A DNA stretch of 64,000 nt from Candidatus Falkowbacteria bacterium (GCA_003514005.1 DOSJ01000006.1:66281-130280); one strand, 5' to 3'; numbered from the stretch's first letter, positions 15,249 to 47,328 are shown. Notes: generated from the letters alone by a model not told the origin. Translations and numbers: made by a program.

Positions 15249-15352
15249 TTTTTTTACATTATTCAACCAATTATATATCCGTCTCCACCAAACACGAAAT
15301 AATTATTTTTAGAAAGCTCATTTTAATCTACAACCAACAATGGAGGTGGGAA

Positions 15353-15490
15353 ATGGAAAACGAAAAGAGTAACAAAATAAAAGAAGAAGTGTCGTCAAAA
15401 CGCACGCCAACAAACGAAAAAGAATTGGTAAAAGAATGGACCATTGATGACTTTGTGCTTGATGATGGTCCAGACGAAGATGATTATTAA
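15353..15490 (+). CDS. acidic 45-aa hypothetical protein
   Basis: Hand-found ORF MENEKSNKIKEEVSSKRTPTNEKELVKEWTIDDFVLDDGPDEDDY. GGAGGTGGG SD within ~10 nt upstream of the ATG (GGAGG core 6 nt from it). Followed by the hairpin gggggatactttcatccccc. Confidence 0.45.
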   Translation: MENEKSNKIKEEVSSKRTPTNEKELVKEWTIDDFVLDDGPDEDDY

Positions 15491-15676
15491 CAAACTTTTC
15501 GCTTTACAGGGGGATACTTTCATCCCCCGCTTTCTATAAATAATTATTTTGCAGGCTCCACCCATATTTTATCATTTTACCAAAAAGAAAAGGCTATTAT
15601 CTATATGAGACAATAGCCATGTTTTATAGGATGCTGATGAGCATTCAGCAAAGTTAAAATGAACAATTGTTTGAGT

Positions 15677-15752
15677 TGGCTCCTCGACTCGGACTTGAAC
15701 CGAGAACCAAGAGGTTAACGGCCTCTCACTCTGCCAATTGAGCTATCGAGGA
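15677..15752 (-). tRNA. tRNA-Asn (GTT), CCA encoded
   Basis: Manual cloverleaf: acceptor TCCTCGA/TCGAGGA, D GCTC/GAGT, anticodon stem AGAGG/CCTCT with loop CCGTTAA, T arm CTCGG-TTCAAGT-CCGAG, discriminator G, then CCA. Confidence 0.85.
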
Positions 15753-15932
15753 GCAACTTGTGTTATATTAACAAAATATTAAAATCTGTCAACCCCCTTA
15801 CTTCTTTCATGTTATTGCTGATATAAAAAATTAAGTAACTAAATTTTTGTAAATATACTTTTTTTCAAAATAAAATGAGCCCCATACGATTAATTTTTTA
15901 CGTACGAAGGCTCAGTTGCTAAAAAATTTGAA

Positions 15933-16196
15933 TTATTCACCAAAAAAATCTTTGACCATCTGTTCGGTTATATCATACTCATCCCAGTCTTCACGAGGGA
16001 TAACTTCTACTTCCTGGTTGGGAAAAATCGCTTCGGTACCTGGTTCTGATGATCGTTGAATTTTTCCGTCCCGGACCGGAAAAGGAAAAGACCATTCTCC
16101 ATGTTCGCAAGCAAAAAATAATTTTTTTTCGCCACAGTCATCTAGAAGAAAAAAGCCGTTCTGAAGTTTTCCAAATCTCATTTTAATTAATGCCAT
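15933..16196 (-). CDS. hypothetical 87-aa protein
   Basis: AAAAGGAGAAAAG SD 5-8 nt upstream. Hairpin terminator downstream (tgagcc...ggctca + T-run). No recognisable family. Confidence 0.55.
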   Translation of the reverse strand: MALIKMRFGKLQNGFFLLDDCGEKKLFFACEHGEWSFPFPVRDGKIQRSSEPGTEAIFPNQEVEVIPREDWDEYDITEQMVKDFFGE

Positions 16197-16410
16197 TATA
16201 CTTTTCTCCTTTTAAAAAGATTATGAAATAAGTTCAAAATAAATAAAAATAACAAACATTTTTTCCGAATTTAATCAATTGATTATGCTAATTTAGCAAA
16301 GGCAGTAGCTTCTGTCAAGTACTAGAATCAATTATCATGTTAATAAACAATCACATTTTTTCTGCTGTTCTTAATTTTATATCAAAAAAATCAAAAATAT
16401 ATTTTTTGTA

Positions 16411-16439
16411 TTTACAAAACATTAGTTCAATGATAAAAT
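16411..16439 (+). promoter_or_regulatory. sigma70-like promoter candidate for the small-protein operon
   Basis: TTTACA, 17 nt spacer, TAAAAT. About 55 nt upstream of the 16496 ATG. Confidence 0.45.
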
Positions 16440-16495
16440 CAAAATATCATTTATTTATCGTTCATTAATAATAACTAGATAATAAGGAGAATTAA

Positions 16496-16711
16496 ATGGA
16501 CTCAACAAACTCTGAAACCGGAAAAAAAATTTTTCAGGACTTGCTTGAAAGCGGAAGATGTTATGATACAGAACTTAAACCACTGCCATCCGAAACAATA
16601 AACCGCTTCAAAGAATTAATTAAACAATCAAAAGAATCAGCCAGGAGAGGGCGGTTTTTTAAAAAAAACTGTACAATTCAATTTGGCGAACAGACAAAAA
16701 AGGAGGATTAA
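16496..16711 (+). CDS. small charged two-Cys protein, paralog A (71 aa)
   Basis: AAGGAGA SD. Shares KIFQDL-SG-C ... SKE..RRG..F.K.CT..FG...KKE with the next ORF. Confidence 0.6.
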   Translation: MDSTNSETGKKIFQDLLESGRCYDTELKPLPSETINRFKELIKQSKESARRGRFFKKNCTIQFGEQTKKED

Positions 16712-16936
16712 ATGGACACAACAGACCCTAAAACCGGTAAAAGGCACAAAATATTTCAAGACTTAATTGATTCAGGAAAATGTGTTGAAAGAATACGCAG
16801 TCCGCTTTCCCCCGAAGAATTGGCGTACCTTGCTCGATTAGCAGAAGAATCAAAAGAAATGATTAGAAGAGGAGAAATTTTTAGAAAAACCTGCACAATG
16901 AAATTTGGAGGTTCGGATAAGAAGGAGGAATTATGA
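16712..16936 (+). CDS. small charged two-Cys protein, paralog B (74 aa)
   Basis: AAGGAGGA SD embedded in the last codons of paralog A, and the ATG abuts the upstream TAA. Roughly 45% identity to paralog A by eye. Confidence 0.6.
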   Translation: MDTTDPKTGKRHKIFQDLIDSGKCVERIRSPLSPEELAYLARLAEESKEMIRRGEIFRKTCTMKFGGSDKKEEL

Positions 16937-17061
16937 ATGAAACATTGAGCCAAACAGAAAATATTTTAACTTTACTTATTCCTTTTGTCTATTCCGCCGT
17001 GATTATTGTATTATATTTAATACAAACATACATCGAAGAAAGATATAATATTGACAAATAA
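16933..17061 (+). CDS. 42-aa single-TM mini-protein
   Basis: Hand-found ORF MNETLSQTENILTLLIPFVYSAVIIVLYLIQTYIEERYNIDK. GAAGGAGGA SD. ATGA overlap with the paralog B stop. Followed by a terminator. Confidence 0.5.
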   Translation: MNETLSQTENILTLLIPFVYSAVIIVLYLIQTYIEERYNIDK

Positions 17062-17115: not shown

Positions 17116-18051
17116 TTATACCCGCGAATACTTCCTGACCGCTATCAAACTCGCAACGATATTGATAAGGGCGGCGGCCAGGAATTGGAGTCCGAAAATA
17201 TTGAATGCGTTGCCGTAGAAATAGGTTATCAGATTTATATTGTAACCGACAAAAAAGGTTTCCAGATATGGCTGAAGCAAGCTTAGGAATGGATAAAAAA
17301 TAACCATGATAGCGAGCACGCCGAAAAGCGTGTAAATAATGCTTGAAACCAGGTATGGCATTTGGATAAAATAATTGGATGCGCCGACCAGCTTCATGAT
17401 GGAAATTTGACGACGGTGTGTGTAGATTGCGACGCGGACGGAATTGTATATGACAAGCATTGTGATAAAAACGAAAATCGAGCTAAGCATCAAACCGGCA
17501 TCGGTTACTTTCTTTGTGATGTTGTTGATTTTTCCCAGCAGAGTTTTGTAGTTGGTAAAATTGCGCGACTCGATTATTTCACTGTCATAAGCGTTCAGCT
17601 TATTGATCAAATTATCAAACACGTCCAGATTAACCGGCTTAATAACCATTGTCGGGGTCAAGGGATTGATATTCAGCTCGCGCAAAGCACCAAGTATTTC
17701 TTGGTTCTCTTTGTGTTTTTCCGTAAAATTTTTCAAAGCGGCCTCTTTTGAAACATAAGTAACTTCTTTGACTTCGCTTAGCTCGGAAATCTTGGCTTTC
17801 AGCGCCAAAATTTCTTCTTCTTTCGCGTCTGTTTTTAGATAAAGATTAATATCAATCTTGTCATGCACAGCGCCAACAGCGGTTTCGCCGACTACACTTA
17901 CTACCAAAAGCATATTCACGGTGAACAAGGCAAGAATCAAAATGATTATCGTAACCAAAGACAGCCAGATATTACGAAAAATATCTTGAAAACTAAATTT
18001 GATTATTCTTGCGAAAGATAGAAACATATTTTTAATTAAAAATTTTGTCAT
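17116..18051 (-). CDS. ftsX: cell division permease-like protein FtsX
   Basis: 4-TM FtsX topology with a large extracytoplasmic loop, adjacent to ftsE. The called ATG lies inside the repeat at 18046-18182, so the Met 8 codons downstream (MFLSFARI) is an alternative start. Confidence 0.85.
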   Translation of the reverse strand: MTKFLIKNMFLSFARIIKFSFQDIFRNIWLSLVTIIILILALFTVNMLLVVSVVGETAVGAVHDKIDINLYLKTDAKEEEILALKAKISELSEVKEVTYVSKEAALKNFTEKHKENQEILGALRELNINPLTPTMVIKPVNLDVFDNLINKLNAYDSEIIESRNFTNYKTLLGKINNITKKVTDAGLMLSSIFVFITMLVIYNSVRVAIYTHRRQISIMKLVGASNYFIQMPYLVSSIIYTLFGVLAIMVIFYPFLSLLQPYLETFFVGYNINLITYFYGNAFNIFGLQFLAAALINIVASLIAVRKYSRV

Positions 18052-18182
18052 TCCCGCGAAGGCGGGAATCTTGGTTAAAAAATAAACAAATTATTTTACT
18101 ATAACATTCATTTTAAGAGCATTTTTATTATCCTCAATCGCCTATCTTTTCACCAAGATTCCCGCCTTCGCGGGAATGACAA
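18046..18182 (+). repeat. MITE-like hairpin repeat, copy 3 (type A, full terminal inverted repeats)
   Basis: tgtcattcccgcgaaggcgggaatcttggt ... caccaagattcccgccttcgcgggaatgacaa. Fills the ftsE-ftsX intergenic gap. Confidence 0.9.
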
Positions 18183-18193
18183 GAGGATTGTTC

Positions 18194-18874
18194 TTATAAT
18201 ATATACTTCCCCACCGCCTGATCGCTGATAATTGTTCCGTTATCAATCGTTAGCACCCGCCTTTTCAAATTGTTGACGATCTCGCGATTATGAGTTACCA
18301 AGATAACAGTTGTGCCGAATTTATTTATCCGCAACAGTAGCTCGATGATTTCATTGGCGTTTAGTGAATCCAAATTGCCGGTCGGCTCGTCTGCCAAAAG
18401 AATCTTTGGTCTATGCACAAGCGCACGCGCGATTGCCGCTCTTTGCTGTTCACCGCCGGAAACTTCCTGCGGATAGTCGTTAACCTTTCTTTCCAATCCA
18501 ACGATTTTCATAACATGCGGAACTATCTTTTTTATCTTGCCGGAAGATCCGCCGCAAACTTGCATAGCAAAAGCGACATTTTCAAACAAAGTTTTTTTGC
18601 TAAGCAGTTTGAAATCTTGAAAAATTACGCCAATCTGCCGCCGTAATACCGGTATCTCTCTTTGCCGGATATTGGTAATATCCCATCCGCCGACCACGAT
18701 TTTTCCTTCATCAATCCCCTCTTCACCGATCATAGTTTTAACCAAAGTCGTTTTTCCGGTTCCGGATTGCCCGACAATAGAAACAAATTCACCCGGTTTG
18801 ATATGAAGATTGATTTTGTTCAAAGCCTTGCCACTTTTGTGATATGTTTTTGTAACGTTATAAAATCTGATCAT
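18194..18874 (-). CDS. ftsE: cell division ATP-binding protein FtsE
   Basis: Walker A GQSGTGKTT, ABC signature VSGGEQQR, Walker B ILLADEPTGNLD. Confidence 0.9.
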   Translation of the reverse strand: MIRFYNVTKTYHKSGKALNKINLHIKPGEFVSIVGQSGTGKTTLVKTMIGEEGIDEGKIVVGGWDITNIRQREIPVLRRQIGVIFQDFKLLSKKTLFENVAFAMQVCGGSSGKIKKIVPHVMKIVGLERKVNDYPQEVSGGEQQRAAIARALVHRPKILLADEPTGNLDSLNANEIIELLLRINKFGTTVILVTHNREIVNNLKRRVLTIDNGTIISDQAVGKYIL

Positions 18875-18903
18875 ATTTAAATTAAGCCTAATGGCACATT
18901 TCT

Positions 18904-18972
18904 TCGTTAATTTCGTTTATTTTCGTGTCTCTGTTTTAGATATAAACACGAAAATGACGAAAAAATACGAAT
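18904..18972. repeat. imperfect palindrome built from ttcgt/acgaa words
   Basis: ttcgttaatttcgtttattttcgtgt ... acacgaaaatgacgaaaaaatacgaa, with a 9-bp perfect core ttttcgtgt/acacgaaaa. Confidence 0.7.
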
Positions 18973-18992
18973 AAAAGAAAACATTGAAATCT

Positions 18993-20588
18993 CTATAACT
19001 TGATAAGTCCGTATTGGATTAGTTTTTCGGTTTCACTAAAACTTTGATCTCGCGTTTCTGCACCAAAGGTTACGACAATAATATTTTTGTTTTGTTTTGT
19101 TCCAACCCTTGTCATTAGACAATATCCAGATTCATTTAAATATCCTGTCTTTGATCCGTTGACTGTATATTTATCACTCTTGATTATCTGATTCGTATTT
19201 ACTATTTTGTGATATATTTTTTTATTTACAGTTGTGAATTCATACTGTCCTATGGTACTGGCTTTGGCAATAATCGGATGCTTCAAAACCTCTTTGGTTA
19301 TTATAGCATAATCGTGGACAGAACTCACGTTTTCCGGGGCCAGGCCTGTCGGTTCGATAAAGTGCGTCGTACTAGCGCCCCATTCCTTTACGACTGAGTT
19401 CATTTTCGCAATGAATTCATCCCTATTTAAGGGGCTTATGCGCACAAGCGACTCGATAGTATTGTTTGCCGAACCAACCAGCGAGGAGTATATCAGGTCG
19501 TTAATCGTCAAAGTCTCGCCGTCGCTAATCCGCAACCGGGCCGATTCCCACTTATTAACATGTTGATAATTATATTCTTCGTCCGCCACGCTATAAGCGA
19601 CTACGTTATCCAATGTCGGCTTCGTATCCAAAAAAACTTTAACAGCAATTAGCTTTGTCAGACTTGCCAAGGGCAAGGTCTCGCTACTGTTCTTTTCCCA
19701 AATAATTTTATTATCCGTTTCGTCCATGATTAGGGCTGACTTTAATTTTATTTGCGGCGCGTCGCTCGCGCTGGTCTCGTTATTGCTTAGCGCGCTTACG
19801 GATTTGAGCGTCGCAATGCTAAGTGGCTCTACCCTGACATTCAAAGTTCCTTCGCTTAAACTGCCGATTTTCAAAAAAGCATTTTTTTCCAAATCAACAA
19901 CACGATCCGGAAAAAGCTTGCGATCCGGTCCAAAATCATTCACAACAACATCTACGAATTTATTATTCGCTTGATTATAAACACGCAATTTTGAGCCGAT
20001 CGGAAAATCCGGCGATGCGGCAAAGTCGCCTGCTTTGTGCGCGTACCAGCTTGCTTTGCCGACAGTAAGGACATTTGGATAAGCGAAAACCGCAATCCGC
20101 GCATAAGGCAAATGGATTAGCGAACGGACAAACTTTTCCTTGGGAAAATCCGTTGTGGGCAATGGCCGCCAAGAGCCGAAATTCTTATCATAAAAAAACA
20201 CTTGCTTGTGGAAATTGTTTACTTCGTTATAGGCAAATTGGATATAAAACGGCTTGTGGTTATCATAGGCCGCTTTGTTCATGAATTCAAACTGAAAAAC
20301 ATCGCTAATCATATTCATCTGCCAAGGCAAAGGCAATTCTTCACGCAAATCCAAAATCTCCACGCGCGTATCTTCTGACAAAATCCCCGGAACCAAAGAT
20401 AATTTCAACTTATCCCCAAACCCACTCACAGTGTAGCCCTTGGCAATCGTTGCTTTATCCAGATTAATCGAATACAAACTATTTTCCAGCACCGCTGTCA
20501 AACCCGCCTCTTCTGCAGAAACACAAAAAGGAAAAATAATAAACGAAGTAATCAATAAATATTGTAAGAATTTTTTTTTCATAACCAT
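18993..20588 (-). CDS. secreted fusion: RlpA-like double-psi beta-barrel domain + S11 D-alanyl-D-alanine carboxypeptidase
   Basis: Signal peptide. GKASWYAHKAGDFAASPDFPIGSKLRVYN..VDVVVNDFGP is RlpA/DPBB-like. S11 motifs: SxxK (ASLTK), SxN (GSANN), KTG (GSKTG). Confidence 0.75.
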   Translation of the reverse strand: MVMKKKFLQYLLITSFIIFPFCVSAEEAGLTAVLENSLYSINLDKATIAKGYTVSGFGDKLKLSLVPGILSEDTRVEILDLREELPLPWQMNMISDVFQFEFMNKAAYDNHKPFYIQFAYNEVNNFHKQVFFYDKNFGSWRPLPTTDFPKEKFVRSLIHLPYARIAVFAYPNVLTVGKASWYAHKAGDFAASPDFPIGSKLRVYNQANNKFVDVVVNDFGPDRKLFPDRVVDLEKNAFLKIGSLSEGTLNVRVEPLSIATLKSVSALSNNETSASDAPQIKLKSALIMDETDNKIIWEKNSSETLPLASLTKLIAVKVFLDTKPTLDNVVAYSVADEEYNYQHVNKWESARLRISDGETLTINDLIYSSLVGSANNTIESLVRISPLNRDEFIAKMNSVVKEWGASTTHFIEPTGLAPENVSSVHDYAIITKEVLKHPIIAKASTIGQYEFTTVNKKIYHKIVNTNQIIKSDKYTVNGSKTGYLNESGYCLMTRVGTKQNKNIIVVTFGAETRDQSFSETEKLIQYGLIKL

Positions 20589-20823
20589 TAAATTATAGCA
20601 CGTAACTTATTATTAAACCAGTTTAGAATTAGTTTAGAATTAATAATTTATGCTAAAATAAATATTGCAGTGTAGTAAAGGCTTAAATTAGTTATTATCG
20701 AAGCGAGGACTGTTCGAACAACGCGCAACATGAAACACGCAACACACAATAGACGATATTTTACTATTAAAAAAGTTTCTTTATACAATTCTGTGGGTAA
20801 ATATTAAACGTTTTTCCTTTATT

Positions 20824-20975
20824 TGTCATTCCCGCGTAGGCGGGAATCTTGGTGAAAAAATAATTAGATATTTATTCACCAAGATTCCCGATCATTTAAT
20901 ATTTATTCCCTGCGGGGCTATGGAGTGTCGGGAATGACAAAATATTTTAACCATAAAATTATCTAAAGAACCAAA
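20824..20975 (+). repeat. MITE-like hairpin repeat, copy 4 (type B)
   Basis: Same arms as copy 2. The 3' tail aatattttaaccataaaattatctaaagaaccaa is shared with copy 1. Confidence 0.9.
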
Positions 20976-21081
20976 AAAATTTGAATAGCAAATAACTAAT
21001 CCAAGCCTTTACGGAACGGTGCTTGATAGATATAATGACGATATTGCATTTTTTCAAAAATACTATATTATTAAAATATTC

Positions 21082-21152
21082 GCGAGCGTAGTATAATGGT
21101 AATACGCGACCTTCCCAAGGTTGAGTCGTGGGTTCGATTCCCATCGCTCGCT
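21082..21152 (+). tRNA. tRNA-Gly (CCC)
   Basis: Manual cloverleaf: GCGAGCG/CGCTCGC acceptor, anticodon loop TTCCCAA, T arm GTGGG-TTCGATT-CCCAT, discriminator T. CCA not encoded. Confidence 0.85.
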
Positions 21153-21155
21153 CAG

Positions 21156-21214
21156 GTGATTTTCGATTTTCGATTTACGATTTTTTAAATCGTAAATCGT
21201 AAATCATAAATCGC
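21156..21214 (+). repeat. long hairpin of 7-nt words in the tRNA-Gly/tRNA-Thr spacer
   Basis: gattttc gattttc gatttac gatttt / aaatcgt aaatcgt aaatcat aaatcgc. About 27 bp with 3 mismatches by hand pairing. Confidence 0.8.
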
Positions 21215-21224
21215 AAATCCCAAC

Positions 21225-21297
21225 GCCGAAATAGCTCAATTGGTAGAGCAATCCCTTCGTAAGGGAGAGGTTGTCGGTTCAAGTCCGATTTTCGGCT
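21225..21297 (+). tRNA. tRNA-Thr (CGT)
   Basis: Manual cloverleaf: GCCGAAA/TTTCGGC acceptor, anticodon loop TTCGTAA, T arm GTCGG-TTCAAGT-CCGAT, discriminator T. CCA not encoded. Confidence 0.85.
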
Positions 21298-21314
21298 CAA
21301 TCATTATCCGTGCA

Positions 21315-21338
21315 AATCCGCGTAAAAATCCGCGTAAA
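21315..21338. repeat. tandem aatccgcgtaaa x2, reverse complement of the 2194-2231 word
   Basis: Exact 12-mers at 21315-21326 and 21327-21338, with degenerate units on both sides. Confidence 0.8.
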
Positions 21339-21350
21339 TCAGCGTCTCTT

Positions 21351-22733: not shown

Positions 22734-22797
22734 ATATTCAATAATGATTTTTTAGAAAAAACTATAGTTAAAATTAGTATTTCTTTGTAACACGGAT

Positions 22798-22935
22798 TTA
22801 ATTTTTAATTTTTAATTTGAAATTTTTATTAAATTTTTAGTTTTTAATTTTCAAAAATTTATTTAACAAAATAAATATAAATTTAAACATTTAAAATTTA
22901 TTAAAAATTTCAAATTAAAAATTTCAAATTAAAAA
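22798..22935. repeat. AT-only inverted repeat of taatttt/aaattaa words
   Basis: tttttaatttgaaatttttattaaat ... atttattaaaaatttcaaattaaaaa. The right arm runs into the stop of the FtsB-like gene. Confidence 0.6.
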
Positions 22936-23360
22936 AAGTACTCCCACCATTGCCGCGGATTGCTGATTGGTTTTTTTGTTTCTTCGTTTTTTCCTTTTAT
23001 GTCGTAGGGTGAATCCTCTGTTGCAAGCGCGCCTTCTTTGCCCGCGTTTTCTTTGTCTTTTATCACAATCATCTCCTCCCCTTCTTTTTTATAATTAAGA
23101 TTCAAGCGCGCTTGTTCGGCGATAAACTGATCCGATTCAAGATATTCAGCCAGCTTGCTAAGCTCTTGATTTTTCTTTTCCATTTCTTTGATTTCTTCCT
23201 GCAGTTTTTTGATCTCCTGATTTATAGTATAGCGCTTGCTGACATTTTTTGCCATCGGTATGCTGATAAAAATAATAATCGCCAGCCCGATCAGGCTGAT
23301 AAAAATTTTATGCGAAAATATTTTTTTGATTAGGCTTTCTTTTTTTCTTCGAAAAATCAT
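22929..23360 (-). CDS. septum formation initiator (FtsB/DivIC-like)
   Basis: N-terminal TM, coiled coil (EIKKLQEEIKEMEKKNQELSKL), then FIAEQARLNLNYKKEGEEMIVI, typical of the DivIC family. ATGA overlap with the upstream ATPase. Confidence 0.7.
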   Translation of the reverse strand: MIFRRKKESLIKKIFSHKIFISLIGLAIIIFISIPMAKNVSKRYTINQEIKKLQEEIKEMEKKNQELSKLAEYLESDQFIAEQARLNLNYKKEGEEMIVIKDKENAGKEGALATEDSPYDIKGKNEETKKPISNPRQWWEYFF

Positions 23361-39049: not shown

Positions 39050-41356
39050 ATGAACTATAAACTTGCGCAATTATTATTAAGCCCTGGAAAAAACGCTAAT
39101 AGCATTAGCGAAATTTTTGTTGCGCAAATCGATAATCACAAGGAATTTTTGGCAGGCAAGCTCTTTATTCTTTTAGAAATCGGCAAAAACGATTCCGCTT
39201 CCATTAAAATCGCTAATTTTCTGATTGACAGCCTAAATCACAATTATTATCAAAGCGAAAAAATATTACTGCGCGAAAAAATATCAACCCTAAAAGTTGA
39301 ACATATTTTTGAAGCCGCTCTGGCCAAAACCAATAAAAATTTCAAAGACTATTTGGATAATGGTAAAATCAGTATCTCAAACAAAGACATAAACATTAGC
39401 GCCGGCGTGATTCATGGCGACGCAATCTATTTGAGCAGTGCCAATAAAAACAAGGCTTTTTTAATTTTTCCCGATACCGGCGATAAAAAAAATACAACCG
39501 ACAACGTATCTACTTCAACAAATTACAAGATAATCGACATAATCAAGCAATCCGACAAAAAAGAAAAAAACCAAAAAACAACAGAACCTGACGATAAATT
39601 ATTTTCAGACGTAATCAGCGGTGAAATTCCGCCGCAATCATATTTTTTTATCACAAACGAGGCTTTACCCGAATATTTATCCAAAAATCAAATCATCCAA
39701 ACCATAACCATCCTGCCGCCAGTAAGCGCGGTCGAGCAGATCAAGCAGACATTAGCGAATATAAATTCCTACGTCTCTTTTGCCGGCCTGATCATCAAAG
39801 GCGCTAACTTCCCTTCTGTAAGTGAAAAAAAACAATTGCCAAAAACACCCAATGTCCGCGACTCGATCGTAAACCTAAACCAAACCGAAGATACGACTGA
39901 ACAACTGCTCGCGCCCTCCGGCATAATCAATGTAAAAAAATGGCTTAGCCTTTTTTTCGGTTGGCTAGGTTCGGCCAATGCCAATCGCGCAAAAAACTCC
40001 ACATATTCCCTGGCGATAAAAGACAAGATTTTTGTCAAACGCAACTCGGTGTTTTTTGCGAAAAACAATGTTTTAAAAAAACTAAAAAACTTTTTTGTCT
40101 ATATTGCCAATATTATTTTTTTTACATTCAAAACATTTAGCACAAAAAAGGATTTTTCCGCTTTTGCCAAAAATTTAAAAAATATTTTTTTCAACCTGCT
40201 TTTATTTATTCCCAAAAAAATATCAAGCCTGAATTTTAAAAGCAAGACATTGCTTGCGATTGTTTTTACGGTTTTAGTGATTTTATCAATCAATATTTAT
40301 AGCCAAAAAAACAAAAAAGAACTTAGCGAGGCTGAAAAAAATTATTCCGAAATAAGCTCACTGATTGAACAAAAGCAAAACCAAGCCGAAGCCAATATTC
40401 TTTTTAACAATGATGACGGTGCCAAAAAACTATATGAAGAAATCAAACAGCTTATGGATCAACTGCCGCAAAAAACCGATGAGCAAACCAAAAAATATTC
40501 TGAATTTGAAGATAAATATGATATTTTTTTGGAAAAAATCCGACGCGTAACCCGTTTGGAAAATTTAGAAGAAATAGCGAACTTCTCCAATCTTTCCCAA
40601 TCGGCAAGTGTTGATAATATTATTTTTCTGGAAAAAGAAAAGAAAATTTACGCAGGCGATTCATCGCAAAAATCAATTTATATTCTTGATACAGAAGACA
40701 AGCTAACAACCGCCCTTACCAATCTGGAACAACCGTATTCCGCTTTTCTGTACCCGACTTTTTTTAATGACAAGGAAATTTATTATTATAGCAACAATAA
40801 TCAACTGGCAAAAGTCAACATAGCAGACGATAAGCTTGGCGCTATAAATGCAAATTTTGGCACTGCCGCTATCTCTGATTTGGAAAATTTTAATAACAAT
40901 TTATACGCGTTGGACAGCGGCGCAAAGCAGATCTATCGCCATACAATCAGCAACTCCGTATTATCAACCCCCTATTCCTGGATCCAAGGAGAAGCAGATT
41001 TTGAAAAAGCAATTGATTTTACAATCGACGGCAGTGTGTATTTACTGGTTGAAAACGGCCGAGTTATAAAATATCTGCGTGGCGCCAAACAAGATTTTGC
41101 GCTCAAATCCGTTGAACCGGAGCTAAAAAACCCGACAAAAATATTTACATCCAAAGACATAAATTCAATCTATATCCTTGAGCCAAGCGAAAGTCGAATT
41201 GTTGTTTTTGATAAAGAAGGCCTTTTCTTAATGCAATATCAAGACAAGAATTTGAAAAATCTCAAAGACTTTATTATAGACGAAAAGAACAAAGTATTAT
41301 ATTTACTAAACGACAACACGGTTTACAAACACACACTAAATCATTTAGTCAAATAA
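39050..41356 (+). CDS. large hypothetical membrane protein (N-domain, TM segments, coiled coil, C-terminal repeat/propeller-like region)
   Basis: 768-aa uninterrupted ORF. Hydrophobic helices around residues 345-415. Coiled coil EAEKNYSEISSLIEQKQNQAE. No family recognised. Confidence 0.55.
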   Translation: MNYKLAQLLLSPGKNANSISEIFVAQIDNHKEFLAGKLFILLEIGKNDSASIKIANFLIDSLNHNYYQSEKILLREKISTLKVEHIFEAALAKTNKNFKDYLDNGKISISNKDINISAGVIHGDAIYLSSANKNKAFLIFPDTGDKKNTTDNVSTSTNYKIIDIIKQSDKKEKNQKTTEPDDKLFSDVISGEIPPQSYFFITNEALPEYLSKNQIIQTITILPPVSAVEQIKQTLANINSYVSFAGLIIKGANFPSVSEKKQLPKTPNVRDSIVNLNQTEDTTEQLLAPSGIINVKKWLSLFFGWLGSANANRAKNSTYSLAIKDKIFVKRNSVFFAKNNVLKKLKNFFVYIANIIFFTFKTFSTKKDFSAFAKNLKNIFFNLLLFIPKKISSLNFKSKTLLAIVFTVLVILSINIYSQKNKKELSEAEKNYSEISSLIEQKQNQAEANILFNNDDGAKKLYEEIKQLMDQLPQKTDEQTKKYSEFEDKYDIFLEKIRRVTRLENLEEIANFSNLSQSASVDNIIFLEKEKKIYAGDSSQKSIYILDTEDKLTTALTNLEQPYSAFLYPTFFNDKEIYYYSNNNQLAKVNIADDKLGAINANFGTAAISDLENFNNNLYALDSGAKQIYRHTISNSVLSTPYSWIQGEADFEKAIDFTIDGSVYLLVENGRVIKYLRGAKQDFALKSVEPELKNPTKIFTSKDINSIYILEPSESRIVVFDKEGLFLMQYQDKNLKNLKDFIIDEKNKVLYLLNDNTVYKHTLNHLVK

Positions 41357-41362
41357 ACCCAC

Positions 41363-41420
41363 AAAAAAAATACATGTCTTTCGTCATGTATTTTTTTAAT
41401 TGCTTAATACTTAATACTAT
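41363..41420. terminator. bidirectional terminator plus conserved gcttaatacttaatactat module
   Basis: aaaaaaaatacatg-tctttcgt-catgtattttttt, then aattgcttaatacttaatactat. The same module follows the terminator at 52033-52095. Confidence 0.7.
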
Positions 41421-41425
41421 TAACT

Positions 41426-43234
41426 TTAAACTTTATTATCTATCTTCATCATAATCTCCGCAATAAAATCTTCTCTCGGCACTTCCCGCATCTGGTCGCT
41501 TCCGCGATTACGAATAGAAAGATTGTCAGAGTTCATTTCTTTGTCGCCAATAACGAGCATATACGGCACTTTTTCCTTTACAGCCTTGCGGATTTTGTTA
41601 CCTACTGTTTCGTCACTTGCGTCAACGCTTACCCTAAAACCGCTTGAACGGAAATCATCGGCAAGTTTTAAGCAATACTCTACGTGTTTTTCGCTTACTG
41701 CTACAAGCTTAATTTGGATCGGTGATATCCAAACCGGAAAAGCGCCGGCATAGTGTTCTATCAGTAAAGCTAAAAATCTTTCAAATGATCCGAATAACGC
41801 ACGGTGCAAAACATATGGCCGTTCATCTTCGCCTTTATTATTTGTATAATTCATATCAAACCGTTCCGGCAGATTAAAATCAAACTGTAATGTCGAGCAT
41901 TGCCATTCTCTACCGATTACATCTTTAAGCTTGAAATCCAGTTTTGGTCCATAGAAAGCCGCTTCGCCTTCTTCTTCGACAAAATTCAATTCTTTATCAG
42001 TCGCAACTTTTCTTAATACATTCTCGGTAAAATCCCAGCCCTCGTCATTGCCGGCATATTTCTCTTTGTTTTTTGGATCACGCAAAGAAAGGTAAACATT
42101 AATCGTTTTTGTATCAAACCCAAAGGATTGGAAAATAAACAAGATAAAATCAACAACTCTTTTCAACTCATACTCCACTTGATCGGCACGACACATTATA
42201 TGCGCATCGTCTTGTGTAAATCCCCTGACTCTGGTCAAGCCGGACAACTCGCCTTTTTTTTCAAACCGATATACGGTACCGCATTCTGCCCAGCGCATCG
42301 GAAAATCGCGATAAGACTTGGGACTGCTTTTGAATATTTGTACATGAAATGGGCAATTCATCGGCTTTAATAAAAATTCTTCCGATTCTTTTATTTTTTC
42401 ACTTTTTTGTCTATCTTCAAGAGTTTGCCCGATTTCGATTGGCGGATACATGCTCGAATTATAAAAACCCCAATGCCCTGATGTTTCCCAAAGGATACGG
42501 TTGCCAATATGCGGCGACCTGACCAATTCATAACCGCCTTTCAAATGCTCTTTGTACCAAAAATCTTCCACCAAGCGCCAAAGCATAGCTCCGCGCGGAT
42601 GCCACAAAGGCAGACCAAGTCCGACCTTGTCGTCAATATGAAATAGATCCATCTCTTTGCCCAATTTACGATGATCCCTTTTTTCCGCTTCGGCAATCAT
42701 TTTAATATACTCATCCAATTCCTCCTTGGTCAAAAATGCCAAACCATAAATTCTGGTTAACATTTTATTTTTTTCATCACCACGCCAATAGGCTCCGGCC
42801 AATTTGTTCAACATGAAAATATCTTGCTTTATTTTTCCGCTGGCTTCCAAATGCGGTCCGCGGCACAGGTCTTCAAAATTACCAAGCTTATAATAACTAA
42901 CGCTAGTCTCCCCCGCAGCTTTTAAATCCTTAATTAATTCTTCTTTATAAATCTGCCCGGATGCTTTTTCTTTTGCAATCGCCTCGTCAATAGCCATTTC
43001 CGTGCGTTCAAACTTTAGACCTTGCTTGATAATATGCTTCATCTTTTTCTCGATTGCGCCAAGATCTTCTTCGCCGATTTTGATTTCGCCAAAATCAATA
43101 TCATAATAAAATCCGGTCTCAATAGCCGGCCCAATCGCAAATTTTACATCCGGCCACAGCTCTTTTATCGCCGCCGCCATGACATGTGACAATGAGTGGC
43201 GTAGTGTTTCTAGGTTGTTGTTTTGTTGATCCAT
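41426..43234 (-). CDS. thrS: threonyl-tRNA synthetase (lacks N-terminal TGS domain)
   Basis: Starts at the editing-domain motif LRHSLSHVMAAAIKELWP..AIGPAIETGFYYD. Has a class II core and anticodon-binding domain. 602 aa. Confidence 0.95.
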   Translation of the reverse strand: MDQQNNNLETLRHSLSHVMAAAIKELWPDVKFAIGPAIETGFYYDIDFGEIKIGEEDLGAIEKKMKHIIKQGLKFERTEMAIDEAIAKEKASGQIYKEELIKDLKAAGETSVSYYKLGNFEDLCRGPHLEASGKIKQDIFMLNKLAGAYWRGDEKNKMLTRIYGLAFLTKEELDEYIKMIAEAEKRDHRKLGKEMDLFHIDDKVGLGLPLWHPRGAMLWRLVEDFWYKEHLKGGYELVRSPHIGNRILWETSGHWGFYNSSMYPPIEIGQTLEDRQKSEKIKESEEFLLKPMNCPFHVQIFKSSPKSYRDFPMRWAECGTVYRFEKKGELSGLTRVRGFTQDDAHIMCRADQVEYELKRVVDFILFIFQSFGFDTKTINVYLSLRDPKNKEKYAGNDEGWDFTENVLRKVATDKELNFVEEEGEAAFYGPKLDFKLKDVIGREWQCSTLQFDFNLPERFDMNYTNNKGEDERPYVLHRALFGSFERFLALLIEHYAGAFPVWISPIQIKLVAVSEKHVEYCLKLADDFRSSGFRVSVDASDETVGNKIRKAVKEKVPYMLVIGDKEMNSDNLSIRNRGSDQMREVPREDFIAEIMMKIDNKV

Positions 43235-43262
43235 ATAAATTTAAATGAATTAATTAATATTT

Positions 43263-43396
43263 TGTCATTCCCGCGCAGGCGGGAATCTTGGTTAAAAAAT
43301 AACAAATTATTTTTACTATACGTGTTTAATAAAATCATTATATGTTATTTATATTTATCTATCGCAACACCGAGATTCCCGCCTGCGCGGGAATGA
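43263..43396 (+). repeat. MITE-like hairpin repeat, copy 5 (type A)
   Basis: tgtcattcccgcgcaggcgggaatcttggt ... caccgagattcccgcctgcgcgggaatga. Lies between the T-box terminator and the thrS ATG. Confidence 0.9.
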
Positions 43397-43508
43397 AAGG
43401 TAGTAGCGCTTTATTTCAAAAAAACAAAAGCTTCTTCGAGCCTCAAACTATAATATTTATTTTCTAAACAATTAGACATTAGACAATATAATTTAGATAT
43501 TTTTTATT

Positions 43509-43692
43509 AAAAAACCCCCTCCTGGTGTATCAAAAAATTTTCAATACACCGGGACGAGGTTAATCGCGGTTCCACCCGGTTTCTCTGATACAATATCAGA
43601 GCACTTTTTTATTATCAAACAAAACTTAGTTCTGCTTTCGCAAAATATTTATACAACATCACGGTTGGTAGCCGTAACAATCGTTTATTTGA
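43509..43692 (-). promoter_or_regulatory. T-box riboswitch leader (Thr, candidate specifier ACU) with intrinsic terminator
   Basis: Minus strand reads AAACCGGGUGGAACCGCGAUUAACCUCGUCCCGG, with the T-box GGGUGGAACCGCG at 43565-43577. Terminator ACCUCGUCCCGGUGUAU...AUACACCAGGAGGGGGU + U6 (43509-43560). Stem III CUCUGAUA/UAUCAGAG. GAACUAA sits above a basal helix AUCAAAUAAAC/GUUUUGUUUGAU (ACU at 43628-43630). Confidence 0.75.
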
Positions 43693-43699
43693 TATTTAT

Positions 43700-43728
43700 A
43701 TATTATTCCAAAATTCAAAAAATGTCAA
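43700..43728 (-). promoter_or_regulatory. sigma70-like promoter of the thrS leader
   Basis: Minus strand: TTGACA (43723-43728), 17 nt spacer, TAATAT (43700-43705). The -35 overlaps the stop codon of the upstream GT2 gene. Confidence 0.6.
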
Positions 43729-45302
43729 CGGCTTTTCGGCGTTACAAAAAACCCAAGATATTTTCCGAACATCAATCGTGTCTGTGAATCTAGGCCAGGG
43801 ATAGAGCCAAAAATTATAATGCTAATCGGCAGGACAATCCATTGCAACAGCATGCCGGCGTGCTTGAAAAAACCATATTTTTTTGGTTTTGGCGGTAAAA
43901 GGATTGTGGAAAGAATGGCGGAAAGAACAAGGCCGGACATAGCGATAATCATTAATGTTCTCGTAACAAAAGGCAGGTTTGTGGATAACACGGTGGAGTT
44001 GAAACGATCTCCGCCCAAGAGCATTGGCATCCAGCCGATTACGCCGATTATCAAGGCATTGGTTGCCCAAGAATGAAAACCGTAGAGTTGAACAAATATC
44101 CGGCTAATCACCTTTCCTTTTGGCATTTTTGACCAGCGGTCTTTGGCGTTAAAAATAAGATACGGAATATTTTCAACACCCCAGCCCCAGCGTCTTTGTT
44201 GTTTGTATAAATTCTTGGCAGTTTGCCAAGCAGTATTATCCATTGTTACATCCATGGACACCGGATAATAAAGCGGTTCCACCCGATAGTCGCCGTTATA
44301 GTAACAAAAGCAATGCCAAAATATTCGCGAGTCTTCACTTACCATTGTCTTTGACCACAATCCAACCTCAACCAAGGCGCGCCATGTCATAGAATGCGAT
44401 GAATAGGTCGCAAGCTTTTCTTGTCTGATCTGTTGCATCATCTGCCAAAAAGTATTGGAGCTCGCGGCTACGCGCGCAAAAAACGGCGCTTGCCAAACAT
44501 TGTTATGATAAACCGGAATCGGCTGATAGCTGGCGCGATATGGATTTTCTGTTGTCAAAAATCGGTATGTCAAACAATAAAAATAATCGGGATATATAAT
44601 AGTGTCTATATCAAAAACGCTTACTATTATTTTATCATAATCAATATTTTCCTTATCAATCAAATCTTTTTTTATCACTTCCGCGCCCCAAGACTGATTA
44701 GCGCCCTTACCTTTTAGCTCGCCGACCAATCCATCAGGATGAATAGTGATAATAAAATTGCGAAAATATTTTTCATATTCTTTCTTAACAATCTCTGCCC
44801 GTTCTTTCAACTCAACTCCGCCTCGTTCTTCGATAGACAAAAGAATAATCATATTGTCACTGGAATACGCGGAATCGGCAATCGCCTTTATGCTTGTTCT
44901 AATAACCTCCAAGCTTTCCAATGCGATTGGAAAAATTACCAAATGAATAATGTCATCAACGCTTAGATTTATCGATATAGTTTCCCCAGTTTCATGATCG
45001 GTTCGCGTAAGAGCTTGCGGTTTTAAATTTTTTAATTTTTCACGCCAATTAATTGCCGTATTTTCTTTTATTTTGTAATAAGACGAAATCAAATGTATAC
45101 CAAGATACACAACCAAAAGGAGCCAATAAACATCAAAAGCGATAATAAAAAATGCTACCCAAACTGGATAAATATAAGAAAAGATAAATAGTAAAAGCAA
45201 TGTTGACCATGATAAAACGCCTGGCAAAATTTCCAGTGCGCGATATAGCTTTCGGTCTCGTCCAGACAACTCACTAGCCTTTCCGATTTTTAAATAGTTC
45301 AT
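43725..45302 (-). CDS. processive family-2 glycosyltransferase, membrane-embedded (cellulose/chitin synthase-like)
   Basis: N- and C-terminal TM helices. D-containing motifs (VFDIDT) and a QxxRW-type motif (KQQRRWGWG). Confidence 0.75.
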   Translation of the reverse strand: MNYLKIGKASELSGRDRKLYRALEILPGVLSWSTLLLLFIFSYIYPVWVAFFIIAFDVYWLLLVVYLGIHLISSYYKIKENTAINWREKLKNLKPQALTRTDHETGETISINLSVDDIIHLVIFPIALESLEVIRTSIKAIADSAYSSDNMIILLSIEERGGVELKERAEIVKKEYEKYFRNFIITIHPDGLVGELKGKGANQSWGAEVIKKDLIDKENIDYDKIIVSVFDIDTIIYPDYFYCLTYRFLTTENPYRASYQPIPVYHNNVWQAPFFARVAASSNTFWQMMQQIRQEKLATYSSHSMTWRALVEVGLWSKTMVSEDSRIFWHCFCYYNGDYRVEPLYYPVSMDVTMDNTAWQTAKNLYKQQRRWGWGVENIPYLIFNAKDRWSKMPKGKVISRIFVQLYGFHSWATNALIIGVIGWMPMLLGGDRFNSTVLSTNLPFVTRTLMIIAMSGLVLSAILSTILLPPKPKKYGFFKHAGMLLQWIVLPISIIIFGSIPGLDSQTRLMFGKYLGFFVTPKSR

Positions 45303-45635
45303 ATATTCTAATACTCTGTAAATATTTTCTAAATGATTTTAAACTCTTATTAAAATTTTAATATTAATTTTCCTTTATTATTAGCAATAAATTTTATTTA
45401 CTATAACAAATTTCATTGTTTTCATTATAGCAGATTGATTATTTTTTACAAATTTTGGGGTTGTAGCCCAATTTAAAATGTTTAGCACTGATTCCTCAAT
45501 AAAAACCGTTTTTTTTTATTAGCAACTATTATCAACCGTAACTAGAATCAATACCTATTGCACCTCCCATACTCCTAAAACAATCCGAAGACGCTTACGC
45601 GCGTAGACCGCTTCCAAACTTTTTATTTAAACTCC

Positions 45636-45667
45636 AAAAAAAACGCCCCGGATTTTACTCCGAGGCG
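45636..45667 (-). terminator. intrinsic terminator of the 258-aa orphan gene
   Basis: Minus strand: cgcctcgg-agtaaaat-ccggggcg + T8. Confidence 0.7.
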
Positions 45668-45722
45668 GTTAATTCTAAAACTTTTGTCTAAAAGAACAAT
45701 TTTTGACACATGATTAACACCG

Positions 45723-46499
45723 CTAGTTGTGTTTTGCCATATGCTCTGCCATACCAATAAGGTAGGGGCCTAGTTTGCCGATGTGCTTAGCAAGATAGAT
45801 GTCGGAATCAGGAAAATCCAAATATTCGCTCATTCTGCCACCAGACATTAACATTACGCTGTACACGTCTTCTCTCTGGATCAACCCCAATGAATTGAGC
45901 AATACGCCATTTACGTTAAGGCGCGGAGTTAATGTAGTTCTATGACTGTTTCCGTCCCTTTCTATGGTAATAAAGGTTACGCCAAACTCAGAAGATTTAA
46001 ACATCAATCCCAGAACGACTTCTTTTTTGACCGAAACACCGATGACGATTGCACGAAGATGAATCGATCCGTACTGACTAAAAATCGATCCTCCTTCAGG
46101 CAATTCACAACCGCAACCCTGCCATTCAGGGATAATTGCCACAACCATTGAACCGCCAGCTCCTACACGGCTTGATATATCGTGGGGCATGTTTTCGGGA
46201 GTGGCCACTGTGACGCACTTTCCTTCCGTATCTCTTTTCGCCAGATTCATAATTCCAACCGCTATGGGCTTGATTGCCTCGGAAAACTCGCGGAGATGTT
46301 GACGATTAATCCAGTCATTCATCTCAGCTTCCGTAGTTTCTAAACCCTTGGATACAAGCGATTTCGCATACCAAGTGTCAGATCTTCCATCAGCTCTATT
46401 ACGAAAAGTTTTTTCAACATACTCATTCGTAGTTGATTTGAGTTGGTTATTATCAATTAGGTCCTGAAGAATCTCTACTGCAAGCTTTGTCTTTTCCAT
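45723..46499 (-). CDS. hypothetical 258-aa protein (orphan)
   Basis: ACAGGAGAG SD 6 nt upstream and its own terminator. No signal peptide and no family recognised. Confidence 0.6.
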   Translation of the reverse strand: MEKTKLAVEILQDLIDNNQLKSTTNEYVEKTFRNRADGRSDTWYAKSLVSKGLETTEAEMNDWINRQHLREFSEAIKPIAVGIMNLAKRDTEGKCVTVATPENMPHDISSRVGAGGSMVVAIIPEWQGCGCELPEGGSIFSQYGSIHLRAIVIGVSVKKEVVLGLMFKSSEFGVTFITIERDGNSHRTTLTPRLNVNGVLLNSLGLIQREDVYSVMLMSGGRMSEYLDFPDSDIYLAKHIGKLGPYLIGMAEHMAKHN

Positions 46500-46937
46500 T
46501 TTACTCTCCTGTGTTATAAGTTGTTATTGGGAAGATACTATAAACAAACCGACATCAAAATAATTAACTAATCAATTACTAAAATGTTAATTTGTTGCAA
46601 TTCATATTAAAATATAATGAGCTAAAACTAATTAAAAATTTTAGCACGAATACTATATTTTGTCAAATTTGCCCCCGATCAAGAACGTGTTTAGGATTTA
46701 TGATTGGAAGATTATTGAAGAAGAATTAATAATATTAAACATTTATATTTCTTGTCGCTAGTAGGGTCCGATCTTATTTTATTGATATTAATCTGTTTAT
46801 TTGAATTTCTGATTCGAAATAAAAAGCAGAAACGAAATTATAATACTTGAGTATATTTAAAATCAACTTAATTTAAAAAACAGAAAACCCACCTAATGAT
46901 ACAGTGAATTTACTGTTTTTTCTGGTGGGTTGTTTTT

Positions 46938-47237
46938 TTAACTTAATACGTTCTTTTTATAGTAACGTTGGTGGATATTCACAATAATCTGTGACATCTC
47001 GCTCAATTCCTCCTCAGTGCAAGGAACAGTTGTGGCACTTACAAACTCCAAAAAAATCTTAGCAAGATCAATTGGAGAATTTCCAAATCCCAATCCTAAA
47101 ACATTAACAGCTCTTACATTTCCAAATCCACTTGAAATACCTGTAATGGTGGTGGTTTGTGATGTGAGTTGCTCTGTATTTCCACCAGTTTCATCTTCTC
47201 CTATTTCAGATTTTTTAATAATAAGTTTTTTGTCCAC
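46938..47237 (-). CDS. hypothetical 99-aa protein (orphan), GTG start
   Basis: AAAGGAGGT SD with GGAGG 7 nt before the GTG. Gly-rich centre (ITGISSGFGNVRAVNVLGLGFGNSP). Terminator hairpin cccacc...ggtggg downstream. Confidence 0.55.
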   Translation of the reverse strand: MDKKLIIKKSEIGEDETGGNTEQLTSQTTTITGISSGFGNVRAVNVLGLGFGNSPIDLAKIFLEFVSATTVPCTEEELSEMSQIIVNIHQRYYKKNVLS

Positions 47238-47328
47238 GTAATACCTCCTTTGTAAGATTCATATTATTTTTGATAGCAAATTATGTATCAAAAAAGTATA
47301 GCATAAAGCTATACTTTTGTCAAGTCTG

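Follow-up and report, generated by a model that had tools for sequence, protein, structure and literature searches.

Why should some genes of a bacterial genome be preceded by a strong Shine-Dalgarno (SD) sequence and others by none? This question is raised by a 64,000-nt stretch of contig DOSJ01000006.1 (hereafter the window; GC content ~37%) from Candidatus Falkowbacteria, a Parcubacteria-group lineage of the Candidate Phyla Radiation (CPR; Patescibacteria). A preliminary description of the window had listed 13 starts with a strong SD, clustered in three islets, had seen none in front of the housekeeping genes, and had offered two explanations, i.e., recent acquisition from an SD-using donor or a distinct translation-initiation regime for a specific gene class. 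SD-poor genomes as such are known from the Bacteroidia, the Mollicutes, some cyanobacteria, and several CPR groups (PMC10783764, PMC9297842); among the CPR, low SD use with partial loss of CCUCC has been described for the Absconditabacteria, Campbellbacteria, Peregrinibacteria, Wolfebacteria, and approximately half of the Parcubacteria (PMC10783764, PMC9297842), and several lineages have been classed as SD-scarce without CCUCC (PMC10783764). These surveys give genome-level percentages and no split within a genome by gene class, promoter type, or transcription unit (PMC10783764, PMC9297842), and no description of a core-versus-accessory SD split within a CPR genome was found in the full-text literature searched (one library only).

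The 165-kb contig that contains the window has been recovered in identical form from many samples of groundwater type, the species being present in more than 20 assemblies, and is also available at NCBI as contig DNVU01000008.1 of GCA_003508365.1; with its flanks, the sequence analysed covered window coordinates −8665 to 73821 (82.5 kb). The window contained 13 genes with an SD (SD-led) and 34 without (SD-less), and the extended contig 14 and 41, respectively (55 genes). SD strength was expressed as the predicted duplex energy with CACCUCCUUA; this anti-SD was assumed, as the window and seven other loci contained no rRNA gene and the 16S tail of the host itself lies outside the covered sequences. 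Relatives were represented by four more distant loci (L003–L006) and by two contigs from run SRR22388267 (L011 and L012; GC 36.5%), which belong to one organism; altogether these comprise ~125 kb. The P-type ATPase of the window was 56–63% identical to that of the closest species-representative metagenome-assembled genomes (Candidatus Falkowbacteria, Patescibacteria), and a protein identical to the product of gene 27100 is named Candidatus Falkowbacteria bacterium GW2011_GWC2_38 in NCBI.

Two populations of start sites

All 13 starts listed in the preliminary description indeed presented a GGAG located 5–9 nt (mode 6) upstream, with the consensus A-GGAG-G/A; in four cases the match extended to GGAGGT(G), which is exactly complementary to the canonical 16S tail (CACCUCC). 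Duplex energies at these starts ranged from −7.9 to −13.6 kcal/mol, whereas those of all 34 other window genes ranged from −3.4 to +1.9 kcal/mol, resulting in a bimodal distribution with an empty gap. The flanks added one further, weaker SD-led gene (AAGGAAGGGA, −8.1 kcal/mol), the product of which is a Memo-family protein carrying a signal peptide, and seven more SD-less genes. An energy of −7.9 kcal/mol was reached by just 2.5% of the ATGs in the extended contig, compared to 14 of the 55 genes (P = 5e-11). The genome has two start-site populations with different sequence determinants, and each state is conserved across relatives. The three islets were also borne out, as SD-led and SD-less genes formed nine runs where 19.8 were expected (z = −4.0).

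SD-less starts were depleted of SD-like sequence, and did not simply lie at background. None of the 41 reached −4 kcal/mol or lower in the last 20 nt before the start, compared to 9.8% of distal 20-nt windows upstream of the same genes (proximal lower than distal, Mann-Whitney p = 7.5e-5); G content was 6.6% in these last 20 nt versus 13% at −60 to −21, A+U made up ~83%, and ATG accounted for 94% of the SD-less starts. The sole clear position-specific signal was a U at −1, which was found at 66% of SD-less starts (p = 7e-4) and at 68% of those in L003–L006, against a background of 37–38% T at the other positions of these 20 nt; eight SD-led genes scored for this position presented A in five cases and T in three. 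A at −3 had a frequency of 0.39, and the upstream adenines of the Bacteroidia type (−3, −6, −12) were absent within the limited power of this comparison (n = 33–38). Predicted folding energy from −30 to +30 was ~−3.9 kcal/mol in both classes, compared to −8.3 kcal/mol in internal windows; mRNA structure was therefore rejected as a discriminator. In plastids, a U at −1 reportedly can pair with A37 of the initiator tRNA (said to go back to Esposito et al. 2003, EMBO J, and Scharff et al. 2011, 2017).

The split followed core versus accessory genes, and neither expression level nor leaderlessness. Housekeeping families accounted for 0 of the 14 SD-led genes but for 31 of the 41 SD-less genes (p = 4.5e-7), in agreement with the earlier statement on this class. 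On the extended contig, SD-led genes were enriched for products with a signal peptide (7 of 14 versus 3 of 41; p = 0.0013) and for products without a Pfam family (9 of 14 versus 7 of 41; p = 0.0017). Six of the 13 SD-led window genes encode a signal peptide of the cleavable type; the others encode small or orphan, apparently cytoplasmic proteins and a membrane peptide of 42 amino acids (aa). The association is one-directional, however: while the preliminary description had equated orphan and secreted genes with the SD, and no housekeeping gene carried one, several orphan genes (509, 14438, 21351, 29131, 39050, and 62466) and secreted ones (the D-Ala-D-Ala carboxypeptidase gene at 18993 and, just outside the window, genes encoding an M23 peptidase and an RND-adaptor lipoprotein) were SD-less as well. 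SD-led genes were found predominantly on the plus strand (10 of 13 versus 9 of 34 SD-less genes; p = 0.003), which is the lagging strand by GC skew.

Database searches with products of SD-led genes returned few relatives. The 36018 protein matched 31 cluster representatives at E ≤ 1e-3 among 1.84 billion, and a word-indexed search of 5.8 billion proteins returned one relative each for the 27100 and 36018 proteins; for the LolA-like protein, the query alone was returned at a strict cut-off of E ≤ 1e-10 among 5.8 billion proteins. Two metagenome scans found no wider orthologues; the first of these used low-complexity, lysine-rich peptides.

SD-led transcription units and their conservation

The 13 SD-led window genes form nine transcription units, and SD status was a property of the unit rather than of operon position. 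In both multi-gene SD-led units (16496–17061 and 26344–29078) every cistron carries its own SD, even where open reading frames (ORFs) abut or overlap, while closely spaced SD-less genes, such as serS (24 nt after lysS), a glycosyltransferase GT4 gene (34 nt), and 62466 (28 nt), have none. No SD was found for divIC, the ATG of which overlaps the ATPase stop by 4 nt, nor for the gltX-like and M23 peptidase genes, which follow an upstream same-strand gene within 36 nt or overlap it.

SD status was also associated with promoter architecture. The pattern TTGACA-N13–15-TGnTAnnnT occurred at only eight sites in 128 kb (both window strands), six of which (26203, 33355, 35864, 47323, 46666, and 16318) lie 57–138 nt upstream of SD-led starts (Fisher p = 7.5e-5); all six present TGCTA at the extended −10. 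The other two full-consensus sites belong to a tRNA-Asn gene and to the leader of the PLD gene, and the tRNA-Lys promoter reads TTGCAA-17-TGCTATAGT. Predicted leaders of SD-led units were 50–132 nt long. As rplU, lysS, and clpB have strong promoters and long leaders and are nevertheless SD-less, promoter strength or leader length does not explain the split.

Islet 1 contains three SD-led units. The first is a 45-aa ORF (15342–15490, plus strand; SD GGAGGTG at 15342–15348, ATG at 15353), which is followed by a terminator-like hairpin (15509–15528). The second encodes an 87-aa protein without a Pfam family (15933–16210, minus strand; SD AGGAG at 16206–16210, ATG at 16196) and is preceded by the promoter TTGACA-N14-TGCTAAATT (16290–16318, minus strand), with a predicted leader of ~87 nt. 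The third is an operon of three small ORFs (16485–17061, plus strand; 16496–16711, 16712–16936, and 16933–17061), each with AGGAG(G) (at 16485, 16701, and 16923); its promoter is TTTACA-17-TGATAAAAT (16411–16439, plus strand; predicted leader ~50 nt). The first two ORFs of this operon are tandem paralogues of 71 and 74 aa, with the N-termini MDSTNSETGKK and MDTTDPKTGKR, while the third encodes the 42-aa peptide, with one transmembrane helix, and overlaps the upstream paralogue; none of the three matched a known family. The NCBI annotation of the same contig keeps both paralogues and omits the 45-aa (15353) and 42-aa (16933) ORFs. A tRNA-Asn(GTT) gene in this islet (15677–15752, minus strand) is preceded by TTGACA-N14-TGTTAATAT (15765–15792), the full pattern found in SD-led units; this tRNA was found by ARAGORN and a local Rfam scan (60 bits), and was missed by the whole-window Rfam gathering scan.

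Islet 2 starts with an operon of three genes (26333–29078, plus strand; 26344–27087, 27100–28320, and 28332–29078, with SDs at 26333, 27089, and 28320), which has the promoter TTGACA-17-TGCTAAGAT (26203–26231); the promoter and leader region (26203–26343, plus strand) includes a predicted leader of ~106 nt (26238–26343) with three short hairpins. The operon encodes a 247-aa protein with a signal peptide, a 406-aa protein with a signal peptide and a weak OmpA-like match, and a 248-aa lipoprotein with an OmpA-family domain of the peptidoglycan-binding kind. A bidirectional terminator (29090–29116) is located downstream, an example of the strong intrinsic terminators that end several SD-led units. 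Three single-gene units on the plus strand follow. Unit 33451 (33355–34824; promoter TTGACA-17-TGCTAACGT at 33355–33383, leader ~61 nt, SD AGGAGG at 33440) encodes a 457-aa protein with a signal peptide and an AMIN domain (33451–34824), and unit 34997 (34912–35803; promoter TTTACA-17-TACACT, leader ~50 nt, SD AGGAG at 34986) a 268-aa LolA_like protein with a signal peptide (34997–35803). Unit 36018 (35864–38009; promoter TTGACA-16-TGCTAATAT at 35864–35891, leader ~120 nt, SD GGAGGTG at 36007) encodes a 663-aa protein with a signal peptide and no family (36018–38009); its leader (35898–36017) contains one long hairpin of ~21 bp, which is conserved in L012. The 33451 and 36018 leaders share a ATTCTGAAC box at the predicted 5′ end.

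Both units of islet 3 are on the minus strand. One of them (45723–46666; promoter TTGACA-17-TGCTAAAAT at 46638–46666, leader ~132 nt, SD AGGAG at 46506–46510) encodes a 258-aa protein with neither a signal peptide nor a family (45723–46499). The other (46938–47323; promoter TTGACA-17-TGCTATACT at 47295–47323, leader ~51 nt, SD AGGAGG at 47244–47249) starts at 47237 with GTG and encodes 99 aa; its promoter abuts the tRNA-Gln gene (47328–47399). No Rfam match at the gathering score was found for the leaders of the SD-led units in the whole-window scan; the conserved hairpins in two of them (26344 and 36018) may serve to stabilise the mRNA or to regulate expression.

Gene order around islet 2 was the same in L011/L012 as in the window, with orthologous proteins 39–76% identical. 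The four orthologues that could be tested, i.e., those of 26344, 27100, 28332, and 36018 (55, 70, 39, and 58% protein identity, respectively), all retain GGAGG with changed flanking bases (duplex energies of −12.6, −10.7, −12.9, and −13.3 kcal/mol), showing that the SD is under purifying selection, while the divergently transcribed ATPase gene of L011 is still SD-less. Promoter boxes and leader hairpins are also retained (L011 415–541; L012 ~730–860); the region upstream of 26344 aligns with L011 throughout, with the stems at 26257–26273 and 26293–26308 identical in an operon region of 70% nucleotide identity. Conserved gene order together with the retained SD indicates that the arrangement predates the split of the window organism from this relative. 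In the more distant L003–L006, the shared genes (those encoding the ATPase, DivIC, the 460-aa protein, the carboxypeptidase, FtsE, and FtsX) were all SD-less, so that core genes are SD-less in the loci of five relatives. The few strong SDs found in L003–L006 again preceded genes encoding Pfam-less proteins, and tblastn of the SD-led window proteins against these loci returned no homologues. The slot beside the ATPase gene is occupied by different, non-homologous SD-led genes in L004 and in L006, and by no SD-led gene in L003 or L005, which characterises it as a flexible region.

SD-less genes and neighbouring features

The SD-less genes fall into blocks that surround the islets. The block at 509–13383 (minus strand) contains genes encoding a hypothetical protein, a Mur-ligase-like protein, an aminotransferase, SerS, LysS, a Wzy/TPR membrane protein, two GT4 proteins, and a sugar transferase; lysS has the promoter TTGACA-17-TATAAT (6704–6732), with a predicted leader of ~49 nt and no SD. 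Between the two same-strand GT4 genes of this block, which are 34 nt apart, lies a perfect, GC-rich, terminator-like hairpin (10571–10597; AAAGGAGGGG-CTAAT-CCCCTCCTTT), and the downstream GT4 gene presents no recognisable promoter or SD. An RNase P RNA of class A (13501–14054, minus strand) is 554 nt long, compared to the 367 positions of the model, and thus contains large insertions; structural RNAs of CPR bacteria have frequently been found to carry insertions.

The block at 17116–26147 (minus strand) comprises ftsX, ftsE, and the genes for the D-Ala-D-Ala carboxypeptidase, a 460-aa protein, DivIC, and the P-type ATPase. Between islets 2 and 3 (38085–45302) lie SD-less genes at 38085–38846 (minus strand) and 39050–41356 (plus strand), thrS (41426–43234, minus strand), and a GT2 gene (43725–45302, minus strand). 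SD-less genes at 47917–63821 include those encoding PLD, DnaB, YbaB, RecR, RplU, a malic enzyme, DnaE, an MFS transporter, ParB, a CtpA-like protease, MurA, and a 451-aa protein; rplU has the promoter TTGACT-16-TATAAT and a predicted leader of ~100 nt with no SD. The PLD leader region (47726–47916, plus strand) carries the full-consensus promoter TTGACA-16-TGATATAAT in front of a gene without an SD, and its leader of ~157 nt is predicted to form a long hairpin (−47.5 kcal/mol, z = −5.2 versus shuffles) with no Rfam match.

Two copies of a palindromic element of ~103 nt (38917–39019 and 50860–50962, plus strand) are ~90% identical and have a 28-bp outer stem; four positions are changed on both arms with pairing preserved, and the element includes an AGGAG that is remote from any start. 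One copy precedes gene 39050 (768 aa) and the other ybaB (51004); they could represent a repeat of the miniature inverted-repeat transposable element (MITE) or repetitive extragenic palindromic (REP) type, or a structured RNA. Outside the window, clpB (L009 18209–18311, corresponding to window coordinates ~−6091 to −6193, minus strand) presents TTGACA-17-TATAGT followed by a perfect controlling inverted repeat of chaperone expression (CIRCE; TTAGCACTC-N9-GAGTGCTAA) and no SD; this element implies a putative HrcA-type heat-shock control in this CPR genome.

Explanations and relation to known systems

Of the two explanations offered in the preliminary description, the distinct initiation regime is the one that our results support, as SD status is set per unit and co-varies with promoter, leader, strand, Pfam content, and signal peptides. 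We consider it probable, though far from settled, that one cell uses two translation-initiation modes that are assigned by gene set. The default mode would serve approximately three quarters of the genes, including every recognisable core gene (e.g., rplU, clpB, dnaE, dnaB, ftsEX, murA, and four aminoacyl-tRNA synthetase genes, three in the window and one outside), and would be SD-independent; the 30S subunit may load on an open, A/U-rich, G-poor, unstructured leader, possibly with a role for protein S1 and for pairing between U(−1) and A37 of the initiator tRNA. The second mode would serve the 13 window genes in nine units through a strong (A)GGAG(G) at 5–9 nt. These units appear to be self-contained expression cassettes, in most cases with a promoter among the closest matches to the sigma-70 consensus in the window, with a leader of 50–130 nt and an SD for each cistron, and in several cases with a terminator; the proteins that they encode would be lineage-restricted and accessory, approximately half of them secreted or envelope proteins, and the cassettes would occupy clustered, variable, mostly lagging-strand slots. 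We favour the interpretation that accessory genes keep the SD as part of a flexible pool that may need portable, host-independent signals, while the core genome may have co-evolved with the SD-independent default of the lineage; higher or separately controlled translation of the accessory genes would be a compatible addition.

Expression level offers a rather unlikely alternative basis for the split, although it may hold alongside the two-mode interpretation; here, SD, strong promoter, and stabilising leader would together mark the proteins of highest copy number, e.g., abundant envelope or secreted proteins, while core enzymes would be produced in small amounts without an SD in these ultra-small cells of slow growth. 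Such tiering would suit the concentration of full-consensus promoters, of the same type as tRNA promoters, on SD-led units, the resemblance of their leader hairpins to known mRNA stabilisers, the strong terminators at several units, and the envelope or secreted nature of half of the products. However, rplU, clpB, and lysS, which are normally well expressed and have strong promoters, lack an SD, and this speaks against a simple coupling of the SD to high expression; SD-led genes are mostly on the lagging strand, those of L004 and L006 look cytoplasmic, and codon usage gave no sign of translational selection once strand was controlled. SD-led genes had a lower third-position GC content and a pooled excess of C-ending NNY codons (p = 0.005), but both differences vanished within strand; as a strand effect, the NNY excess provides evidence neither for translational selection nor for horizontal gene transfer. 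Import of the cassettes from SD-using organisms, with donor signals still in place, is improbable for further reasons, even though the genes are clustered, narrowly distributed, mostly lagging-strand, and adjoined by tRNA genes at islets 1 and 3, and even though the slot beside the ATPase gene differs in its SD-led content among L003–L006. GC content was native and the same in both classes (0.383 in SD-led versus 0.385 in SD-less genes; p = 0.99), and the comparison of codon usage between the classes, which had been suggested as a check, showed no difference (leave-one-out likelihood p = 0.28). Searches for phage families gave no relevant PHROG match (one weak match had unknown function), and no mobility gene was found inside the islets, the only integrase-family gene (XerC/D-like) being located ~15 kb from islet 1. 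Gene order and SDs of islet 2 are retained in the relative at 39–76% protein identity, so that this islet is neither recent nor decaying, and the SDs are uniformly near-perfect rather than showing a donor-like spread. The earlier suggestion of recent acquisition from an SD-using donor therefore found no support; acquisition at an earlier time, once the lineage had separated from the Falkowbacteria of L003–L006, is conceivable.

Transcription of the SD-less genes from the start codon itself, with SDs confined to leadered or operon-internal genes, was rejected as a model and has a very low probability. Some SD-less genes do present a −10-like box near the start: in the carboxypeptidase gene, TGCTATAAT precedes the first ATG by 3 nt and the second by 9 nt, and in the L003 orthologue of this gene TGTTATAAT is located 9 nt upstream. 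The pyrimidine found at −1, in front of an A(+1), would suit a transcription start, as would the prevalence of ATG. No peak of −10 hexamers was found at 6–8 nt from SD-less starts, however, the distribution of gaps being flat and broad, and extended −10 motifs of SD-less genes lay 16–121 nt upstream in all but one case. The ATPase gene has an extended −10 (TGTTATAAT, 26139–26147) that is conserved in L011 and predicts an AT-rich, SD-less leader of ~49 nt; rplU, lysS, and clpB have predicted leaders of 49–100 nt, again without an SD, and operon-internal SD-less genes lack one as well. An artefact of gene calling, in which SD-less genes would really start further downstream at an SD-led codon or the small SD-led ORFs would not be genes, can hardly be credited. 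The one ambiguous gene, 38085–38846 (minus strand), could alternatively start at an ATG (38762) that follows an AGGAG at a distance of 12 nt, and NCBI omits the 45-aa and 42-aa ORFs. Hidden SDs at mis-chosen starts were nevertheless rejected: within their first 60 codons, the SD-less genes contain 123 alternative in-frame starts, of which 10 reached −6.5 kcal/mol, a proportion close to the 8.4% of all ATGs at −6 kcal/mol or lower. All but one of these 10 were GTG or TTG, and the alternative starts of the aminotransferase, D-Ala-D-Ala carboxypeptidase, and ParB genes would cut conserved N-terminal residues or a signal peptide. Nine SD-led genes encode proteins of 87–663 aa with domains or signal peptides, and four have conserved orthologues.

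A more elaborate possibility, which we regard as quite improbable and which draws on the analogy of bS21-free ribosomes in Flavobacterium, is that the SD-led units constitute a regulon controlled at translation: availability of the 16S anti-SD would act as a gate on a whole accessory envelope and secretome programme. This gate could be set by the presence or absence of bS21 or by the processing of the 16S 3′ end; most ribosomes would then ignore SDs, and exposure of the anti-SD would switch the SD-led cassettes on together, e.g., during attachment to a host cell. The shared TTGACA-N14-TGCTA promoter and the structured leaders could add a second layer, at the level of transcription or mRNA stability. 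bS21 is reported to be often absent in the Parcubacteria (PMC9297842).

Several points weigh against two modes assigned by gene set. The genome-wide SD fraction and its association with gene class are extrapolated from 82 kb (~55 genes) of one genome, and the conservation in orthologues comes from one relative (two contigs, one sample). Transcription starts and leader lengths are predicted from consensus matches in AT-rich DNA. The SD-less orphan and secreted genes show that the accessory class is not fully SD-led. For the 15353 ORF, no separate promoter could be recognised, and it may share a transcript with an SD-less DUF1653 gene, in which case it would be an exception to the rule that SD status is set per unit. 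In addition, approximately half of the Parcubacteria 16S sequences lack CCUCCU (PMC9297842).

SD-scarce CPR lineages belong to the same superphylum; in the genome studied here, the strong, uniform, and conserved GGAGG(TG), together with its optimal spacing, argues that a functional CCUCC anti-SD has been retained. The Bacteroidia, in which the anti-SD is sequestered by bS21, bS18, and bS6 and rpsU is an SD-led exception (PMC7797042, PMC9976891, PMC13000453), are similar in that most genes, including core genes, are SD-less with A/U-rich, low-G upstream regions and a very small set retains a strong, functional SD, which the rest of the genome does without (e.g., in Flavobacterium johnsoniae). 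SD-led genes make up ~1–2% of genes in the Bacteroidia, however, the known one being rpsU (autoregulation), compared to ~25% of the sampled genes here, which are accessory or envelope genes; the adenine pattern was absent here, and SD use co-varies with promoter architecture. A genome type that mixes leaderless and SD-led genes is reportedly distinguished by GeneMarkS-2 as "group C." Such mixed genomes have been described in the Actinobacteria and Deinococcus-Thermus (PMC3160421), which are likewise bimodal, with one gene set SD-led and the other SD-less, but which present a sharp −10 box ~6–8 nt before non-SD starts and operon-internal SDs, neither of which was found here. In plastids and cyanobacteria, a subset of mRNAs is similarly SD-dependent while others rely on an unstructured start region; to our knowledge, this dependence has been connected neither with a core-versus-accessory split nor with promoter class in those systems. 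In Escherichia coli, 5′ UTRs (untranslated regions) of the ompA type are said to act as stabilisers (reportedly described by Emory, Bouvet and Belasco in 1992). The SD-led envelope genes resemble ompA in that a strong SD follows a long leader with stem-loops at or near the 5′ end; the sequences themselves are not similar, and a stabilising role is putative here.

Why SD-poor bacteria keep an anti-SD, and how their ribosomes select starts, has so far been answered only for the Bacteroidia, by the autoregulation of rpsU. If the split holds genome-wide, the accessory cassettes would provide a reason for anti-SD retention in an SD-poor CPR lineage. The combination of an SD with TTGACA-N14-TGCTA would then be a marker, readable from sequence, of the flexible and surface genes in uncultured CPR bacteria, and gene finders trained on one ribosome-binding-site model would assign wrong scores to one class of the two, real small ORFs (e.g., 15353 and 16933) among them.

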